Positions 19,844 to 24,950 of a DNA stretch of 32,000 bases are shown one piece after another. The DNA comes from Acaryochloris marina S15. GTDB taxonomy: Bacteria > Cyanobacteriota > Cyanobacteriia > Thermosynechococcales > Thermosynechococcaceae. Location of the stretch: positions 4,890,001-4,922,000 of the forward strand of contig NZ_CP064923.1 of the NCBI RefSeq assembly GCF_018336915.1. Reading direction: 5' to 3'. A program made the position numbers and the translations under genes. Every line of letters begins with the position of its first letter. Positions within the stretch are counted from its first letter, which is position 1. A model generated the notes under the pieces. It was not told where the DNA came from. It did not search any database and saw only the letters and a program-made list of their open reading frames with translations.

Positions 19844-22663
19844 TTATGGGTAGGGGCTAGTCTCAGCAGATGAGTTGGCCTGCCAGAGCACACGAAATTG
19901 CTCAAAGGACACCGCCTTCGACCAGTGCCATAGCAACCTGTAGGTCGCTTGAACCTGAGAGAGGTGAGGGGACTGGGTATAGACCCATTGGACAACGGAT
20001 ATTGCTTTCACCAGGGTTGGGGGGATACTGTCCTCTTCAGAGGTGATCACCTGTTGGAGATGCAGACCCATCTGTTTGAGATGGGTTTTGCGATGGGTCG
20101 TGGGGAGCAGTTCCAACAATATATCGATGGCTCCCTTGTGGTTGGGTTGCAGGCGTCCCAAACGGCCTGCATAGCGAATGCGAGTCTCAATATCTCGGCT
20201 GTTTTGGAGTTTTTGCTCCAAAACAGGAATAAGCTGCTCCGGGTTCAGGGGGGTTTTGCGAGACCGACGCCGAGAGGACTCTACCGGCAATGCAGAATGC
20301 TGGGGAGCCAATTGTTGCAAAGATTGCAGCGTTTGACGACGGAGACAGGGATCATCCGTTGTTTGCAGGATATGTTCTAGGATTTGGAGCACCATCGGTT
20401 GATCCGGCGCAATAGTGCCGAGCCGATGGGCAGCCTTGCGACGAAGCGTCAGAGAATCATGAGACTGAATAATATCTTGTAAGGTTTGGATGGCTTGGGG
20501 ATGACCTGGCTGAATATCCCCTAGGCTTTTGGCCATCTCAATACGCAGATCCTCATTGGGCGCTTGGGAGAGGAGTTGTTCTAGGGTTGCGATCGCAACT
20601 CCATTCCCCGGATCGTAACTCTTACCCAAACTATGGGCCGCTAACCACTGTTCAAAAGGGTTGGAGGCCTGGGCCACAAACTGTTCAATCGCTGTGGTTA
20701 CGAGGGTGCGATCGCAGTGGGACAACGCTTCCGCTGCAGGTTCGATCCAAACAGTGGGTTTACCTGTCTGCTGCTGAAATCGCCAATGGACCACCTCAGT
20801 CACTAACGCTTCTGCCCCAGCAAATTGGGGATATTCCGCTAAGCCTTTGGTCGCGAGTAACTTCGCTTGAGTGTCATAAAACCCACCACAGCCATCGGCA
20901 AAGTTCACCAAGGCTTGCAGAAAATCTGCCTTATCCACATCAGCAATGTCACTTCGCCCGAGCCATAGCAAAATCACTTCCTGCCATTGCGACCTAAAGA
21001 TGGGATGGAAGGTGGTTTTCGCATTCTGATATTCGATCAACTGATGCCAATCTGCAATCCCTTGGGCCGCAAAATATTCCTGGAACGTAGCGTGATAGAA
21101 GGCATAGACTTTGCCCCCGGTCGTAGGAGACCAACCTGCGGGCTGTAGCCACCCTAATTGCAAGGCGAGCGTGAGTTGGTCTGGGTCTAACTGCTGACTG
21201 ACAAAGATCTCAGGCAAGCGAAACAGCGGCGACGGTTGCGCCATGGCCTGCAAAGCCAGGTGAGCTAAGGCTTGGTTAAGCTGCTGCCGTTGACCCAAGC
21301 TGGTAGGGTGATGATCCTGCTTCCAGTCGTAGAGGGCCTCAACAAACTGCCGATAGAGCATGGCCTTGGTTTCTGGCAGTTGTCCTTGAGTAAGCTGCCA
21401 GGTTCGACAGAGTAGGGCTAAGTGTAAAGGATTCTGGATCAGGGCTTTGAGCCGCCGCATCTCCGGGCGATTAATTTGGTGATACAGCGTATCGCCTTGC
21501 TGGTTATGGAACCAGTTTTGGATCACTGTCTGGACTTGATTACCGCCGTGGCGATAGCTGAAGCTGAGGCTGCGATAGGGGGTGAAGGCTTCCAGAGCAT
21601 TGTGGCCTGTGTCCCAGAGTTGCGATCGCGAAGTCAGTATCACATGGGCTGCTCCCAGCCAGCCCTTCAGCTGCTTAGCCACAAAAGCCAACGCTTGGCT
21701 AGGCACCATCCCCATTTCATCCACCGCATCCAGCAAAAGCCAAACCTTACCTGTGGCAAACTGCTGGGCAAAGGCTTGCTGCTGACTCAACGGAACGGTA
21801 AATACCTTCAGGGTTTGTTTTAGCCAAGTTTCTAGCAGATACGTCTCTAGGGATTGTCCCTCTAGATCGGCTAGGGAGATCCAAATAGGCAGAACCTGTT
21901 CTTGGGCCAACAATTTGAGGGCTAAGGTTTGCAGCAGCGTCGTTTTGCCTGCTCCTGGTGGACCGACAATGGCAACCCGCTGGATCTCTGGTTGAGCCAG
22001 TAAAACGTCTAAAAACTGATCCGGTTGATAAACGATTGATTCTAGGTCAGATTCGGCTGCTGAATCCCCCGTTTGTTTAGCAGCATCGGTCTGGTAAGCC
22101 ACCAACCCCACTGGACAGTAGACATCCTTAAGGTCAAAGGCCAAGCCCGTATGGGCCGTCAGGGGATTAGACGTTAACCGAGTATCCAAAGCTGCCTGAC
22201 AACAGGCTCGCCAAGGGCTGGTAGTCTCTGTTGTTGATAGCTGAGACACCCCTCGATCTGGGCGATGCTGATTCCAAACTTGGTCAAAGGTCTGCTGATT
22301 GGTTTCCTCTTCCCAGCGGTTCTGCCACAAAGTCAGGGTGAAATGCCACTGATCCGACCCTCGCTGACTTGTGCGGTGATCCTCCAGAATGCCCATAAAG
22401 GTTTGGAGATGCTTTAGCCCTGCTTTCACCTGAGCCAGGGTGAGGGGTGTTTCTAAATATTGGGTCAGGGCCACCAAATGCCGAGCCGTGGTCTGTACCA
22501 CCAACCGCTGGTCCGTTTGCCAATGGGTTTTGATATTGCTCCGTAGTCCTGCCAGGATTTTCTCGTCTTCTAGGGCTAAGGAATCATTGGCGAACTGTAC
22601 CAGGCCCATCAGGAGGGTTTGGGTTCTGTGTTGGGTAATGGGACCAAAACTTTGCTTGGGCAT
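19844..22663 (-). CDS. NACHT-domain STAND NTPase with C-terminal PBS-lyase/HEAT-like repeats and an uncharacterised ~215-aa N-terminal region
   Basis: Walker A is VAIVGPPGAGKTTLLQTL and Walker B is VWLLLDAVDEMG. The pre-NACHT segment NPLTAHTGLAFDLKDVYCPVGLV is typical of cyanobacterial NACHT proteins. C-terminal repeats of the type LRIEMAKSLGDIQPGHPQAIQTL / LRRKAAHRLGTIAPDQPMVLQIL are HEAT-like. Confidence 0.85.
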   Translation of the reverse strand: MPKQSFGPITQHRTQTLLMGLVQFANDSLALEDEKILAGLRSNIKTHWQTDQRLVVQTTARHLVALTQYLETPLTLAQVKAGLKHLQTFMGILEDHRTSQRGSDQWHFTLTLWQNRWEEETNQQTFDQVWNQHRPDRGVSQLSTTETTSPWRACCQAALDTRLTSNPLTAHTGLAFDLKDVYCPVGLVAYQTDAAKQTGDSAAESDLESIVYQPDQFLDVLLAQPEIQRVAIVGPPGAGKTTLLQTLALKLLAQEQVLPIWISLADLEGQSLETYLLETWLKQTLKVFTVPLSQQQAFAQQFATGKVWLLLDAVDEMGMVPSQALAFVAKQLKGWLGAAHVILTSRSQLWDTGHNALEAFTPYRSLSFSYRHGGNQVQTVIQNWFHNQQGDTLYHQINRPEMRRLKALIQNPLHLALLCRTWQLTQGQLPETKAMLYRQFVEALYDWKQDHHPTSLGQRQQLNQALAHLALQAMAQPSPLFRLPEIFVSQQLDPDQLTLALQLGWLQPAGWSPTTGGKVYAFYHATFQEYFAAQGIADWHQLIEYQNAKTTFHPIFRSQWQEVILLWLGRSDIADVDKADFLQALVNFADGCGGFYDTQAKLLATKGLAEYPQFAGAEALVTEVVHWRFQQQTGKPTVWIEPAAEALSHCDRTLVTTAIEQFVAQASNPFEQWLAAHSLGKSYDPGNGVAIATLEQLLSQAPNEDLRIEMAKSLGDIQPGHPQAIQTLQDIIQSHDSLTLRRKAAHRLGTIAPDQPMVLQILEHILQTTDDPCLRRQTLQSLQQLAPQHSALPVESSRRRSRKTPLNPEQLIPVLEQKLQNSRDIETRIRYAGRLGRLQPNHKGAIDILLELLPTTHRKTHLKQMGLHLQQVITSEEDSIPPTLVKAISVVQWVYTQSPHLSQVQATYRLLWHWSKAVSFEQFRVLWQANSSAETSPYP

Positions 22664-22837: not shown

Positions 22838-22966
22838 GGACGGTTAGTTTAACGGTAGAACTCCTGTTATATGAATCTCCTTATTCACAACTTTATCCGC
22901 AAGGGTCGAAGAATTAGGGTTATCGCTAAGGAACAGGGGGTAGAGGTTCGAATCCTCTACTGTCCA
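22838..22966 (+). ncRNA. tRNA-like RNA unit 1 (candidate Y-RNA/YrlA-like partner of Rsr), 129 nt
   Basis: Acceptor GGACGGT/ACTGTCC (7 bp, one G-U), D arm GTTT-AACGGTA-GAAC, T arm AGAGG-TTCGAAT-CCTCT, discriminator A. In place of the anticodon stem-loop there is a CCTGTT/AACAGG helix closing a 63-nt extension (22869-22931). Confidence 0.7.
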
Positions 22967-22987
22967 AACCAAAACACCAATATCCAT

Positions 22988-23109
22988 GGGCGGATAGTTC
23001 AAAGGTAGAACATCTTAACCCCCTTGTTCATCACTTATCCGCAAGGGTCGAAGAATTAGGGTTATCGCCTACCACGCGGAAGATAGGGGTTCGACTCCCC
23101 TTCCGTCCA
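22988..23109 (+). ncRNA. tRNA-like RNA unit 2 (candidate Y-RNA-like), 122 nt
   Basis: Acceptor GGGCGGA/TCCGTCC, D arm GTTC-AAAGGTA-GAAC, T arm AGGGG-TTCGACT-CCCCT, discriminator A. It shares an identical 34-nt core (23035-23068) with unit 1 (22893-22926) inside its extension arm. Confidence 0.7.
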
Positions 23110-23115
23110 TCCCTG

Positions 23116-23239
23116 GAGTGGGTCGCTCAAACGGTAGAGCACCATTTTTTGCCCATTAGGGCCGCAGGAAATAAGGTTATCGCTTTTAACGACTTGTCCT
23201 TTATCCATCGGGATGCGGGTTCGACTCCCGCTCCACTCC
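23116..23239 (+). ncRNA. tRNA-like RNA unit 3 (divergent internal arm), 124 nt
   Basis: Acceptor GAGTGGG/TCCACTC (plus a possible extra G23115:C23239 pair), D arm GCTC-AAACGGTA-GAGC, T arm GCGGG-TTCGACT-CCCGC. The internal ~74 nt include the hairpin ATTTTTT-GCCC-ATTA-GGGC-(CGC)-AGGAAAT (23144-23172). Confidence 0.62.
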
Positions 23240-23294
23240 CTTTCCCCATATGGGGTTTCAAGTTTTTATTTGCCCAGTCGGGCCGGAGATGATG

Positions 23295-24893
23295 ATGACT
23301 TATAAATTTTTGACCAACACTGCCCGTACACCTCAGACCCAGCCCATTCCTGGCCGTGACGCTGAAATGGTCCAAGGTCGGTCTGGAGGCTATATGTTTG
23401 ACCTAGGCATTTGGGGTATGCTGCGCCGATGCCTACTGATCGGTACAGCCCAAAGCACCTACTATGCCGATAAGCATGAGCTAACCGATGACTTTATTCA
23501 TGTGATTCAGCAGTGTGTCCATGAGAATCCCCAGCGCACCGCTGAAGAGATCCTCTATGCCAGCGATGGCCGCTCCATCAACAACAGTGCCCCTATCTTG
23601 GCTTTAGTACTCTTATCCATGGGTGAAACCCAGACGGCCAAGCAGGCCTTTGTAGAGCTGTTCCCCCAAGTGGTACGAACCGGAAGCCATTTCTACGAGT
23701 GGTTGAACTACACCAAGTCCTTACGAGGCTTTGGTAAAATCATTCGCCAGTGCGGAACGGCATGGCTCTCTAACCCCGATGCCAAGGCCCTGGCCTATCA
23801 GTTGCTGAAGTACCAGCAGCGTCATGGCTTTACCCACCGGGATGCCTTGCGGCTGTTCCACGTCAAGCCCATCAGTGAAGACCACCAAGCCCTTTATCAC
23901 TGGGTCACCCAGGGTTGGGAGACTTTACCTGAAACTGCTCCTGACGCCTTAAGACAAATTTGGTGGTACGAGCGGGTTAAGCGTCAGCCAGAGGCTACCT
24001 ATGAGGCGATTACCCAAGGTCGCTTAACCCACGAGATGATCGCCCCCATTGGTCAGATGGATCAGCGGGCTTGGCAGCTCCTCTTAGAGGGAATGCCTAT
24101 GGGAGCCCTACTGCGAAATCTGGGGTCTTTGACGGCACTAGGGGTTCTCGCAGCTCATAAGAGCAAGAACCTGAAGCGAGTGGCTGCGATGTTAACCAAC
24201 AAGCAGCGGTTGCGTAAGGCTCGGATTCATCCAATTGATGTACTCAAAGCTTTGAAAACCTATGCATCTGGTGGTCAGGTGGGGCGGAGTCGCAAGACTT
24301 GGACCCCTATCGCCCGAGTCACCGATATGCTCGAAACGGCTCTTGAGCTGTCCTTCGAGACGGTTGCTCCGACGGGCAAAGTGTTTATGCATGCCATCGA
24401 TGTATCAGGATCGATGTCCTACTATACCGTCGGTTCGGTAGGCCTCAGCTGTTGCGAGATTGCCACGGCAATGGCCCTAGCAACGGCCAAAGCTGAGCAG
24501 AATTACGCGATTCGCGGGTTCTCAACCCAGTTCCGTGACTTGGGTATCACAGCCCGAGATAGCTTCCGCGATGCGCTCAAGAAGGCAACGGATAATAATT
24601 TCGGAGGCACTAATGCAGCGGTGGCCTACGAGTGGGCGATTCAGCATCGCTTTTATGCCGATGTCTTCTGCTTCTGGACGGATTCCGAGTCCTACGCGGG
24701 ACGACAGCATCCGAGTCAGGCTCTAGCGGAGTATCGGCGTCTGGTCAATCCAAAGGCTAAGGCAGTCTACGTGACCCTTGCGCCTTGCCAACTCTCCTTA
24801 GTAGATCCTTCGGATCTACTATCTTGGGACTTCGGTGGTTTCGACCCCGCAGCTCCACGAGCGATTCAAATGATTGCTCAAGGAGAGATCTAA
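23295..24893 (+). CDS. rsr: Ro 60-kDa autoantigen orthologue Rsr (TROVE domain + vWA domain with MIDAS motif)
   Basis: The N-terminus TPQTQPIPGRDAEMVQGRSGGYMF and RRCLLIGTAQSTYYA are Ro60/TROVE-typical. The C-terminal vWA domain has the MIDAS motif HAIDVSGSM. Three consecutive ATGs lie at 23289-23297 and GGAG at 23285-23288 favours 23295. The ORF-track start at 23250 begins only 10 nt after tRNA-like unit 3. Confidence 0.9.
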   Translation: MTYKFLTNTARTPQTQPIPGRDAEMVQGRSGGYMFDLGIWGMLRRCLLIGTAQSTYYADKHELTDDFIHVIQQCVHENPQRTAEEILYASDGRSINNSAPILALVLLSMGETQTAKQAFVELFPQVVRTGSHFYEWLNYTKSLRGFGKIIRQCGTAWLSNPDAKALAYQLLKYQQRHGFTHRDALRLFHVKPISEDHQALYHWVTQGWETLPETAPDALRQIWWYERVKRQPEATYEAITQGRLTHEMIAPIGQMDQRAWQLLLEGMPMGALLRNLGSLTALGVLAAHKSKNLKRVAAMLTNKQRLRKARIHPIDVLKALKTYASGGQVGRSRKTWTPIARVTDMLETALELSFETVAPTGKVFMHAIDVSGSMSYYTVGSVGLSCCEIATAMALATAKAEQNYAIRGFSTQFRDLGITARDSFRDALKKATDNNFGGTNAAVAYEWAIQHRFYADVFCFWTDSESYAGRQHPSQALAEYRRLVNPKAKAVYVTLAPCQLSLVDPSDLLSWDFGGFDPAAPRAIQMIAQGEI

Positions 24894-24898
24894 CAAAT

Positions 24899-24950
24899 AG
24901 AGGTTACTAATCACCTTGTTATCAAGGCTTAGTAACCTCTTTCTTTTCTT
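24899..24950 (+). terminator. Rho-independent terminator of the tRNA-like/rsr unit (possibly bidirectional)
   Basis: There is a perfect 12-bp outer stem AGAGGTTACTAA/TTAGTAACCTCT and a 5-bp inner stem CCTTG-TTAT-CAAGG, followed by TTCTTTTCTT. It begins 6 nt after the rsr stop. Confidence 0.8.

Follow-up and report, generated by a model that had tools for sequence, protein, structure and literature searches.

Three tandem tRNA-shaped units lie directly upstream of rsr, the gene for the Ro60 orthologue Rsr, in the cyanobacterium Acaryochloris marina S15 (contig NZ_CP064923.1, positions 4,890,001 to 4,922,000). The units occupy positions 22838-23239 of this 32,000-nucleotide (nt) stretch, referred to below as the window. 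Comparative alignment predicts that the three units are probably Y RNA genes of the YrlA lineage with the native connectivity of a tRNA. They look like circularly permuted YrlA RNAs that keep open tRNA-like ends. The sequence evidence supports their assignment as tRNA-shaped, YrlA-related putative partners of Rsr, with open ends that are potential substrates of RNase P, RNase Z and the CCA-adding enzyme.

The arrangement is a conserved cyanobacterial family and is not particular to the A. marina S15 genome. Pattern scans find one to five units 5' of rsr in nearly all of the 80 cyanobacterial rsr loci that were fetched for comparison and that, together with the window, comprise 81 sources and 730 kb. 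A covariance model built from 32 diverse units, termed R1, gives 316 matches in the same set at a hit threshold of E ≤ 0.01, and, among the matches listed (300), all are on the rsr strand. None of the 80 loci lacks a unit, and the copy number ranges from one to about eight (eight at locus L015). Picosynechococcus PCC 7117 and Gloeothece PCC 7822 each have three units in the gene-free gap 5' of rsr, and the spacers between units measure 6 to 126 nt family-wide. The flanking genes differ between rsr loci (two loci inspected), with no rtcB nearby. With regard to b7a-tRNA, a tRNA-like RNA encoded beside Band-7/SPFH and RtcB genes, no Band-7 or rtcB gene was found among the scanned open reading frames of the window or at two other rsr loci. 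Because the neighboring genes are not conserved and every locus has one or more units, nothing but the array accompanies rsr throughout.

Covariation and connectivity of the units

The case for the structure of the units is comparative because single-sequence folding energies are not significant alone (z = -1.4, -1.5 and -2.6), with the D arm often mis-folded. Over 137 distinct units, 94.2% of the aligned cells hold standard pairs, as against 39-52% when the partners are slid by one to three columns. Changes on both sides are found at 25 of 33 pairs, a level reached by 0 of 500 shuffles. The compensatory changes across orthologous rsr-upstream loci, on which the original prediction had staked its proposed stems, are thus present. 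All seven acceptor pairs covary and are 99.5% paired, the D and T stems covary too, U8 is present in 137 of 137 units, the D loop contains GG in nearly all units listed, and the T loop follows UUCRANU. When no structure is supplied, RNAalifold recovers the acceptor, D and T stems together with the upper stem and the cap-proximal lower stem of the insert, which is termed here the Y arm. As a separate observation, three units from related loci carry a T-loop insertion of ~19 nt, UACCCUACGGGAAGCAAGCUACAAAU, in the model-based alignment.

The Y arm is the most conserved part of the units. Its core is a helix of the CUUGCCU / AGGC[C]GA(N)G type with one bulged nucleotide. This lower Y stem covaries (GC:101/AU:28 and UA:111/CG:23), is capped by a GNRA loop in 119 of 137 units and is followed on its 3' side by a nearly invariant AGGGUUAUCG. 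The outer anticodon helix, pairing positions 27-28 with 42-43, is 98.9% paired and covaries strongly, with CG:72/UA:64 at one pair. Stacked on this outer helix in most units is a hairpin of 3 bp and a 7-nt loop, which starts with the final three letters of AUCG(N). On this alignment, the arrangement reads as an anticodon stem of the normal 5 bp, with a Y-type arm breaking its 5' strand at a predicted three-way junction.

The small loop retains the shape of an anticodon loop. It is 7 nt long in 110 of 137 units, and among these 110, U33 is invariant (110/110), position 32 is a pyrimidine in 102, and position 37 is a purine in 109. The anticodon-like triplet takes 30 different values, including ACC, AUC and UCA in three Acaryochloris genomes. 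Because the triplet takes so many values and differs between close relatives, it is the shape of the loop that is kept and not a codon specificity. The contiguous anticodon arm with a decodable anticodon that defines tRNA (RF00005) is absent, an arm of ~50-65 nt interrupting the stem.

Connectivity was tested only at positions where the 5' strand of a unit and that of its downstream neighbor differ. At these positions, the acceptor 3' strand pairs with its own unit only in 63 cases and with the neighbor only in one (43 versus 0 in the model-based alignment). The same model-based alignment gives 11 own versus 0 neighbor pairs for the outer anticodon helix and 7 versus 2 for the lower Y stem. 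Acceptor pairing between units, 5.52 of 7 positions, equals the family background of 5.39. The 3' ends were considered in addition: of 128 distinct 3' ends, 35 encode a CCA immediately following position 73 and 27 encode it with a delay of one nt, against a chance expectation of ~2 and counts of 0-5 at other offsets. The 35 direct-CCA ends span 20 acceptor/discriminator combinations in 25 loci. Because own-unit pairing prevails, with independent support from the CCA-encoding 3' ends, the connectivity with an open acceptor and a capped Y stem is under selection. The open acceptor ends of the original prediction therefore hold, since the acceptor covaries within units and not over junctions and CCA is encoded in about half of the related units. 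The window belongs to the remainder: as had been noted, none of its three units encodes CCA, and its genuine tRNA-Pro gene (1400-1473) likewise lacks it.

In 100 of 113 distinct units, the nucleotides at positions -1 and 73 are able to pair (G:C in 70, U:A in 17, other pairs in the rest), which would give an 8-bp acceptor stem similar to that of tRNA-His, and AUG precedes 64 units. The window includes two such cases, a U:A pair in unit 2 (22987/23109) and a G:C pair in unit 3 (23115/23239). The unpaired discriminator that had been assigned to all three units consequently needs qualification for units 2 and 3, and unit 1 is the only one not so listed.

These features bring in the possibility that the units specify free-standing tRNA mimics that work chiefly with a partner other than Rsr, for example by serving nucleases that target tRNA, or enzymes of RNA repair, as decoys or cofactors, with another role for the Y arm. 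The full tRNA frame, the CCA and the tRNA-His-like -1:73 pair would suit tRNA-binding enzymes; Burroughs and Aravind (2016) are reported to have proposed tRNA-like cofactors for RNA-repair modules, and in Chlorogloeopsis erythromycin induces TROVE and SPFH genes together (PMC6424891). The strict linkage, however, is to rsr and not to ligase or repair genes, and the arm bears a Ro60-binding motif and helix, which makes a main partner other than Rsr improbable.

The three units of the window

The coordinates and pairings of the original prediction are correct, as regards the three units, their spacers of 21 and 6 nt and the stems and loops that it described. The units are arranged head to tail on the same strand as rsr (+):

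22838-22966, + strand: unit 1, type A variant; Rfam tRNA 48.9 bits, R1 93 bits
22838-44 with 22959-65: unit 1 acceptor; D arm 22847-61; T arm 22942-58; position 73 is A 22966
22863-68 with 22932-37: unit 1 anticodon-type stem, CCUGUU with AACAGG, which encloses the Y arm
22878-22925, + strand: Y arm of unit 1; upper stem UCCU(U) 22878-82 with AGGG 22916-19
22891-98 with 22903-11: unit 1 lower bulged stem, CUUUAUCC with GGGU[C]GAAG; cap GCAA 22899-22902
22905-11: unit 1 GNCGAAG motif (GUCGAAG); invariant GGGUUAUCG at 22917-25
22967-22987, + strand: spacer 1, 21 nt; 9-nt indel relative to two other Acaryochloris genomes
22988-23109, + strand: unit 2, type A; R1 115.4 bits
22988-94 with 23102-08: unit 2 acceptor; D arm 22997-23011; T arm 23085-23101; position 73 is A 23109
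23013-14 with 23079-80 and 23066-68 with 23076-78: unit 2 split anticodon stem, UC with GA and CGC with GCG
23069-75: unit 2 7-nt loop CUACCAC; variable loop AGAU 23081-84
23021-23065, + strand: Y arm of unit 2; CCCUU 23021-25 with AGGG 23058-61; junction UUAU 23062-65
23034-40 with 23045-53: unit 2 lower stem, CUUAUCC with GGGU[C]GAAG; cap GCAA 23041-44; motif GUCGAAG 23047-53
23110-23115, + strand: spacer 2, 6 nt
23116-23239, + strand: unit 3, type B; Rfam tRNA 35.1 bits, R1 56.3 bits
23116-22 with 23232-38: unit 3 acceptor; D arm 23125-40; T arm 23215-31; position 73 is C 23239
23146-54 with 23159-67: unit 3 lower Y stem, UUUUUGCCC with GGGC[C]GCAG; cap AUUA 23155-58
23173-76 with 23198-201: unit 3 AAGG with CCUU, around the hairpin UCG-CUUUUAA-CGA 23180-92
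23142-43 with 23210-11: unit 3 weak closing pairs, CC with GG

Every unit forms a cloverleaf comprising an open 7-bp acceptor stem (GGACGGU/ACUGUCC in unit 1, GGGCGGA/UCCGUCC in unit 2 and GAGUGGG/UCCACUC in unit 3), U8, a 4-bp D stem with G18G19 in its loop, a variable loop, and a T stem of 5 bp whose loop reads UUCGAAU or UUCGACU. The main differences between the units are in the placement of the Y arm. In unit 2, which retains a 5-bp anticodon stem with its 7-nt U33/R37 loop, the Y arm branches off the 5' strand of that stem. In unit 1, an Acaryochloris variant, the Y arm sits inside a continuous anticodon-type stem, which shows compensatory changes in A. marina MBIC11017 (UCUGU/ACAGA) and in IP29b (CCUGC/GCAGG). 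In unit 3, the order differs, with the capped lower stem first and then the AAGG...CCUU helix around the mini hairpin. Units of this type B are also present in Pseudanabaena and Leptolyngbyaceae; in their alignment, the acceptor, D and T stems covary, and the lower stem and mini hairpin are mostly invariant. The original prediction had described the anticodon arm as replaced in all units and a 7-nt anticodon loop as missing from each. The second statement holds for unit 1 alone, the only unit with an enclosing CCUGUU/AACAGG stem. In units 2 and 3, by contrast, the arm is split or rearranged by the inserted Y arm and 7-nt loops are present (CUACCAC and CUUUUAA).

The Rfam tRNA model reports unit 1 (E = 1e-7) and unit 3 (E = 6.5e-4) above its gathering score of 29, with alignments that span model positions 1-71 and place inserts of 64 and 67 nt in the anticodon region. 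Unit 2 has no Rfam tRNA report, and ARAGORN calls none of the three units. In Rfam 15, tRNA is the only family above threshold, and no other family fits the units. This result, together with the 7-nt U33/R37 loop, favors degenerate or intron-containing tRNA genes, or tRNA-derived repeats, that are near rsr by chance. The failure of ARAGORN to call any unit argues against such genes, as do the insert, which breaks into the anticodon stem and is better conserved than any other part of the unit, and the variation of the triplet between close relatives. Group I introns are far longer than the insert, which is far too short to be one. With rsr linkage at 80 of 80 loci in addition, an origin of the units as stray tRNA genes is scarcely credible.

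Unit 2 combines G3:U70 (22990 and 23106) with A73, the identity set for alanine. In A. marina MBIC11017 the corresponding pair is A3-U70, so the pair is not conserved, and no claim of alanine charging is made for unit 2. As a further observation on the window units, units 1 and 2 share an identical block of 34 nt (22893-22926 and 23035-23068), the remainder of the two units being 77% identical, which suggests gene conversion or strong constraint. A public short-read (Logan) contig with an identical Rsr begins ~253 nt 5' of rsr, roughly at this repeat, and is uninformative on transcripts. Between three Acaryochloris genomes, the units are 88-96% identical, whereas spacer 1 has the 9-nt indel.

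Relation to YrlA and other Y RNAs

YrlA RNAs are built in the order Ro strand, T arm, closed acceptor hairpin, D arm, Ro strand (Rfam RF02553; PMC4201824; bioRxiv 10.1101/312249), and the signature GNCGAAN0-1G marks Rsr binding in bacterial Y RNAs (PMC4201824). Similar to YrlA genes, which are often present in several copies, the window units lie beside rsr (within ~4 kb) on the same strand, have a GNCGAAN0-1G helix (motifs at 22905-11 and 23047-53) that covaries, and contain a tRNA-like module with a T arm, a variable loop, a D arm of the GCUCA..GGUAGAGC type, an acceptor-type stem and the tertiary nucleotides. The two differ in connectivity. In YrlA, the T arm is 5' of the D arm, the acceptor is closed and the RNA ends lie in the Ro60 helix; in the window units, the acceptor is open and the Ro60-type helix is capped by a tetraloop (GCAA, GCAA and AUUA), so that the Ro60 stem is not formed by pairing of the 5' and 3' ends.

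The relationship can be followed in mycobacteriophage Rizal and in Nonomuraea, where the sequence reads as two or three open-ended Y RNAs 5' of Ro with closed acceptor hairpins. Their terminal helices are long and RNA-specific, e.g. GGAGGCAGGCCGAGA / ACCAUGUCUGCCUCC. The cyanobacterial units and these YrlAs have a series of modules in common, in permuted order: GGCCGA[A/G] or GGGUCGAA, CGGUUAUC, the mini hairpin with 3 bp and 7 nt, a variable loop AGGUC or a close variant, the T arm, and a D arm GCUCAG..GGAUAGAGC. In addition, R1 scores 93-115 bits on window units 1 and 2 and only 33-49 bits across the junctions of true YrlAs. Because the modules are shared in permuted order and the cross-hits mirror each other, the cyanobacterial units are homologues of YrlA by circular permutation. 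The link to YrlA made in the original prediction is thereby strengthened, by motifs shared with phage and Nonomuraea YrlAs and by the rsr linkage at all 80 loci. As a side observation, in the Nonomuraea YrlA the closed acceptor loop has CCACCA right after the 3' acceptor strand (L090:2760-2780). A CCA in this place fits the processing by RNase P and CCA addition that has been reported for Mycobacterium smegmatis.

The M. smegmatis YrlA is the closest described case in terms of processing: its acceptor stem measures 7 bp, RNase P cleaves it, CCA is added in vivo, and it is made with YrlB from one precursor 5' of rsr. It has YrlA connectivity, however, and cleavage leaves pieces of 82 and 65 nt that are held together by the Ro60-binding stem, whereas one continuous RNA would be expected from each window unit, given that its stem is a capped hairpin. 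As for Deinococcus radiodurans Yrn1 and the metazoan Y RNAs, both strands of the bulged Ro60 helix are recognizable in the window units. GGUCGA-7 nt-GGGUUAUC of the window units has the blocks and spacing of human RNY4 (GGUCCGA-7 nt-GGGUUAUC), and the 5'-strand blocks GGUC(C)GA and G(G/A)GUUAUC, with their 7-nt spacing, match human RNY4 and RNY1. In those RNAs, the termini lie in the Ro60-binding helix, and the tRNA-like module is partial (Yrn1) or not apparent (metazoan).

Several observations weigh against the placement of the units as un-permuted members of the YrlA lineage. The Rfam YrlA model, which the original prediction had named as a check along with the tRNA model, gives only sub-threshold scores of 23.2 bits (22916-23044) and 20.5 bits (23078-23143), both across unit junctions, where the gathering score is 69. 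The distal end of the Y-type helix is a tetraloop, where every described Y RNA has its termini, and the cap is only 4 bp past the bulge. The commonest cyanobacterial form of the motif, GCCGACG, deviates from GNCGAAG, and that of unit 3, GCCGCAG, has one mismatch to it. The closing helix of type B is weak (C-G plus A.C), the register of the upper stem is ambiguous (CCUU/AGGG or UCCU/AGGG), the possible -1:73 pair makes the mature 5' end uncertain, and a sigma-70 scan found no promoter 5' of unit 1. The YrlA gathering score, which also finds no match in 15 other cyanobacterial loci, is a narrow test because the Rizal and Nonomuraea YrlAs fall below it as well (36 and 51 bits). As a control, the model reaches 98.4 bits on a YrlA at the rtcR-rsr locus of a Rhizobium etli plasmid, where two further copies stand in tandem.

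The junction-spanning scores are what would be expected if canonical permuted YrlAs were read across the junctions, each joining the T arm and 3' acceptor strand of one unit to the 5' acceptor strand and D arm of the next, with their ends in a Ro60 stem formed between two inserts and with the spacer as acceptor loop. The YrlA model aligns over its full length at the unit 1/2 junction and partly at the 2/3 junction, the strands of neighboring units are pairable at six of seven acceptor positions, GAACAGGGGG of unit 1 is likewise pairable with CCCCCUUGUUC of unit 2, and the unit 1/2 junction segment folds at z = -3.1. Moreover, among the few YrlAs reported in cyanobacteria, some have a longer acceptor stem (Chen 2014, PMC4201824; Wang 2018, bioRxiv 10.1101/312249). 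Against this stand the preference for own-unit pairing (63:1, 43:0, 11:0), with inter-unit acceptor pairing at the family background, and spacers of 6-126 nt that have indels between close relatives. A Y stem closed by a 4-nt GNRA loop and a CCA encoded after the 3' acceptor strand would likewise be out of place. A complete 5' half at the array start and a complete 3' half at the array end would be superfluous, and the long RNA-specific terminal helices of true YrlAs are absent in the window units. Canonical YrlAs at the junctions are accordingly very improbable, and the units are better taken as Y RNAs that each fold on their own.

A reading across the junctions of tandem units does yield the permuted order, as in the permuted tRNA genes of red algae and archaea and in the dimeric-tRNA origin model for YrlA, which is attributed to Sim and Wolin (2018). 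Those are precursors of real tRNAs or a hypothesis, whereas the un-permuted units of the window are under selection and carry a Ro60 arm. The original prediction had considered a three-copy array with open acceptor ends to be outside the textbook arrangement. The tandem copies in themselves are ordinary, since two or three tandem Y RNAs stand beside rsr in Rhizobium etli, Nonomuraea and a mycobacteriophage. Several Y RNAs beside rsr are thus already known, and the unusual feature is the connectivity, not the tandem multiplicity; the permuted connectivity appears new. No description of un-permuted, GNRA-capped cyanobacterial Y RNAs was found in the YrlA literature, of which two reviews or analyses and the 2014 supplement lay outside the coverage.

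Genomic setting and implications

The array is followed by a short leader and rsr:

23240-23294, + strand: leader from the end of unit 3 to rsr; hairpin GCCC-AGUC-GGGC 23272-83, Shine-Dalgarno sequence GGAG 23285-88
23295-24893, + strand: rsr, Ro60 orthologue with TROVE and vWA_Ro60 domains (Pfam and conservation)
24899-24950, + strand: terminator-like hairpin AGAGGUUACUAA...UUAGUAACCUCU and then a U-rich run, 3' of the rsr stop (sequence reading)

The rsr product matches vWA_Ro60 (E = 3.5e-35) and TROVE (E = 1e-19) in Pfam, is 95% identical to the Rsr of A. marina MBIC11017 and has ~70% identity across cyanobacteria. Its start is placed by conservation alone, at the third ATG (23295), the sole ATG kept in comparison with two other Acaryochloris genomes. 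The end of unit 3 is 55 nt from this ATG and 53 nt from the start of the homology match, in keeping with the 50-55 nt first estimated, and the absence of an intervening terminator was also confirmed in a consensus terminator scan. A palindrome 3' of unit 3, CCCCAUAUGGGG, was rejected as a terminator, being not conserved among Acaryochloris genomes.

This close apposition raises the question of whether the units act in cis, as a structured leader of the rsr mRNA that binds Rsr for autoregulation or stabilizes the mRNA, without being released. The distance from the last unit to the start is fixed (37 or 34 nt in most Nostocales loci, 53-55 nt in Acaryochloris), no terminator separates the array from rsr, and a conserved hairpin stands beside the Shine-Dalgarno sequence. 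Selection, however, keeps 7-bp acceptor stems and encoded CCA, which are marks of processed ends; some loci have units more than 1 kb 5' of rsr, and R1 also matches 3' of rsr; and the M. smegmatis Y RNAs are cut from a precursor 5' of rsr. A purely cis-acting leader is therefore unlikely, though less so than the other alternatives considered here. The leader and released-RNA roles are compatible, and processing could also set the 5' end of the rsr mRNA.

Several further observations concern the surroundings of the array. The leader hairpin abuts the Shine-Dalgarno sequence and is kept in three Acaryochloris genomes; it may be a feature of the rsr mRNA 5' end or of translation. On the 5' side, TTGACT (22746-51) and TAGATT (22791-96) are conserved and are candidate promoter elements only. 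The hairpin at 24899-24950 is a long inverted repeat, AGAGGTTACTAA...TTAGTAACCTCT, with a T-rich run after the rsr stop, and is probably the operon terminator; the consensus scan probably missed it because its loop exceeds the scan's 3-8 nt limit. Weaker R1 matches (33-55 bits) are found just 3' of the rsr stop at L075:5673-5810, L046:5660-5772, L031:5681-5788 and ~25 other Nostocales loci. The window has no unit 3' of rsr, unlike some Nostocales genomes. The divergent neighbor 5' of the array (19844-22663, - strand) encodes a 939-residue STAND NTPase with EAD4, NACHT and HEAT domains, which is a conflict-system-type protein. A CyVA-1 RNA (RF02965, 75 bits) at L039:603-679, ~3.3 kb 5' of rsr in a Gloeocapsa metagenome-assembled genome (MAG), is probably unrelated.

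For the Y RNAs proposed here, the array would be transcribed either together with rsr or immediately ahead of it. Cuts at the acceptor ends by RNase P and RNase Z would then give RNAs of ~120-130 nt, and the CCA-adding enzyme would supply CCA where it is not encoded. The CCA-less tRNA genes of cyanobacteria follow the same route, with RNase P, RNase Z and then CCA addition. Each RNA is expected to bind the Rsr ring via its bulged helix and to present the tRNA elbow, the acceptor end and the anticodon-like loop as an effector-binding module, in the manner suggested for YrlA. The complexes of Rsr, Y RNA and PNPase in D. radiodurans and Salmonella suggest, by analogy, that the resulting ribonucleoprotein may serve in quality control of structured RNA or ribosomes. 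In Chlorogloeopsis fritschii PCC 9212, erythromycin strongly raises the transcripts of TROVE-domain and SPFH/Band-7 genes (PMC6424891). A role in RNA or ribosome quality control is consistent with this induction of the TROVE gene, which concerns the protein gene only.

With regard to the origin of the tRNA-like YrlA class from tRNA, the arrays physically match the proposed "dimeric tRNA" intermediate. They hold the same modules as YrlA wired inversely, with CCA-type open acceptor ends and a capped Ro60 helix. It is tentatively proposed, as a possibility that falls short of being the favored outcome, that cyanobacterial Y RNAs are complete five-armed, CCA-ended tRNAs that represent the un-permuted state of the lineage, and that YrlA arose from tandem copies. 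If this is true, Y RNAs began as a Ro60-binding hairpin grafted into the anticodon stem of a tRNA, and canonical YrlA would have arisen when the sites of processing shifted away from the acceptor spacer and into the tip of the Ro60 helix. As tRNA look-alikes with CCA ends, the RNAs tethered to Rsr could then engage aminoacyl-tRNA synthetases, EF-Tu, ribosomes or tRNA-specific nucleases, which would tie Rsr directly to translation stress.

The long acceptor stems of cyanobacterial YrlAs reported earlier may, on this analysis, come from reading across unit junctions. The analysis also predicts one-piece Y RNAs, processed by RNase P and RNase Z, in a phylum from which few YrlAs have been reported, with Nostoc, Picosynechococcus and Acaryochloris as systems for testing. 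The R1 covariance model is ready to annotate ~300 loci that are unannotated or mis-called.

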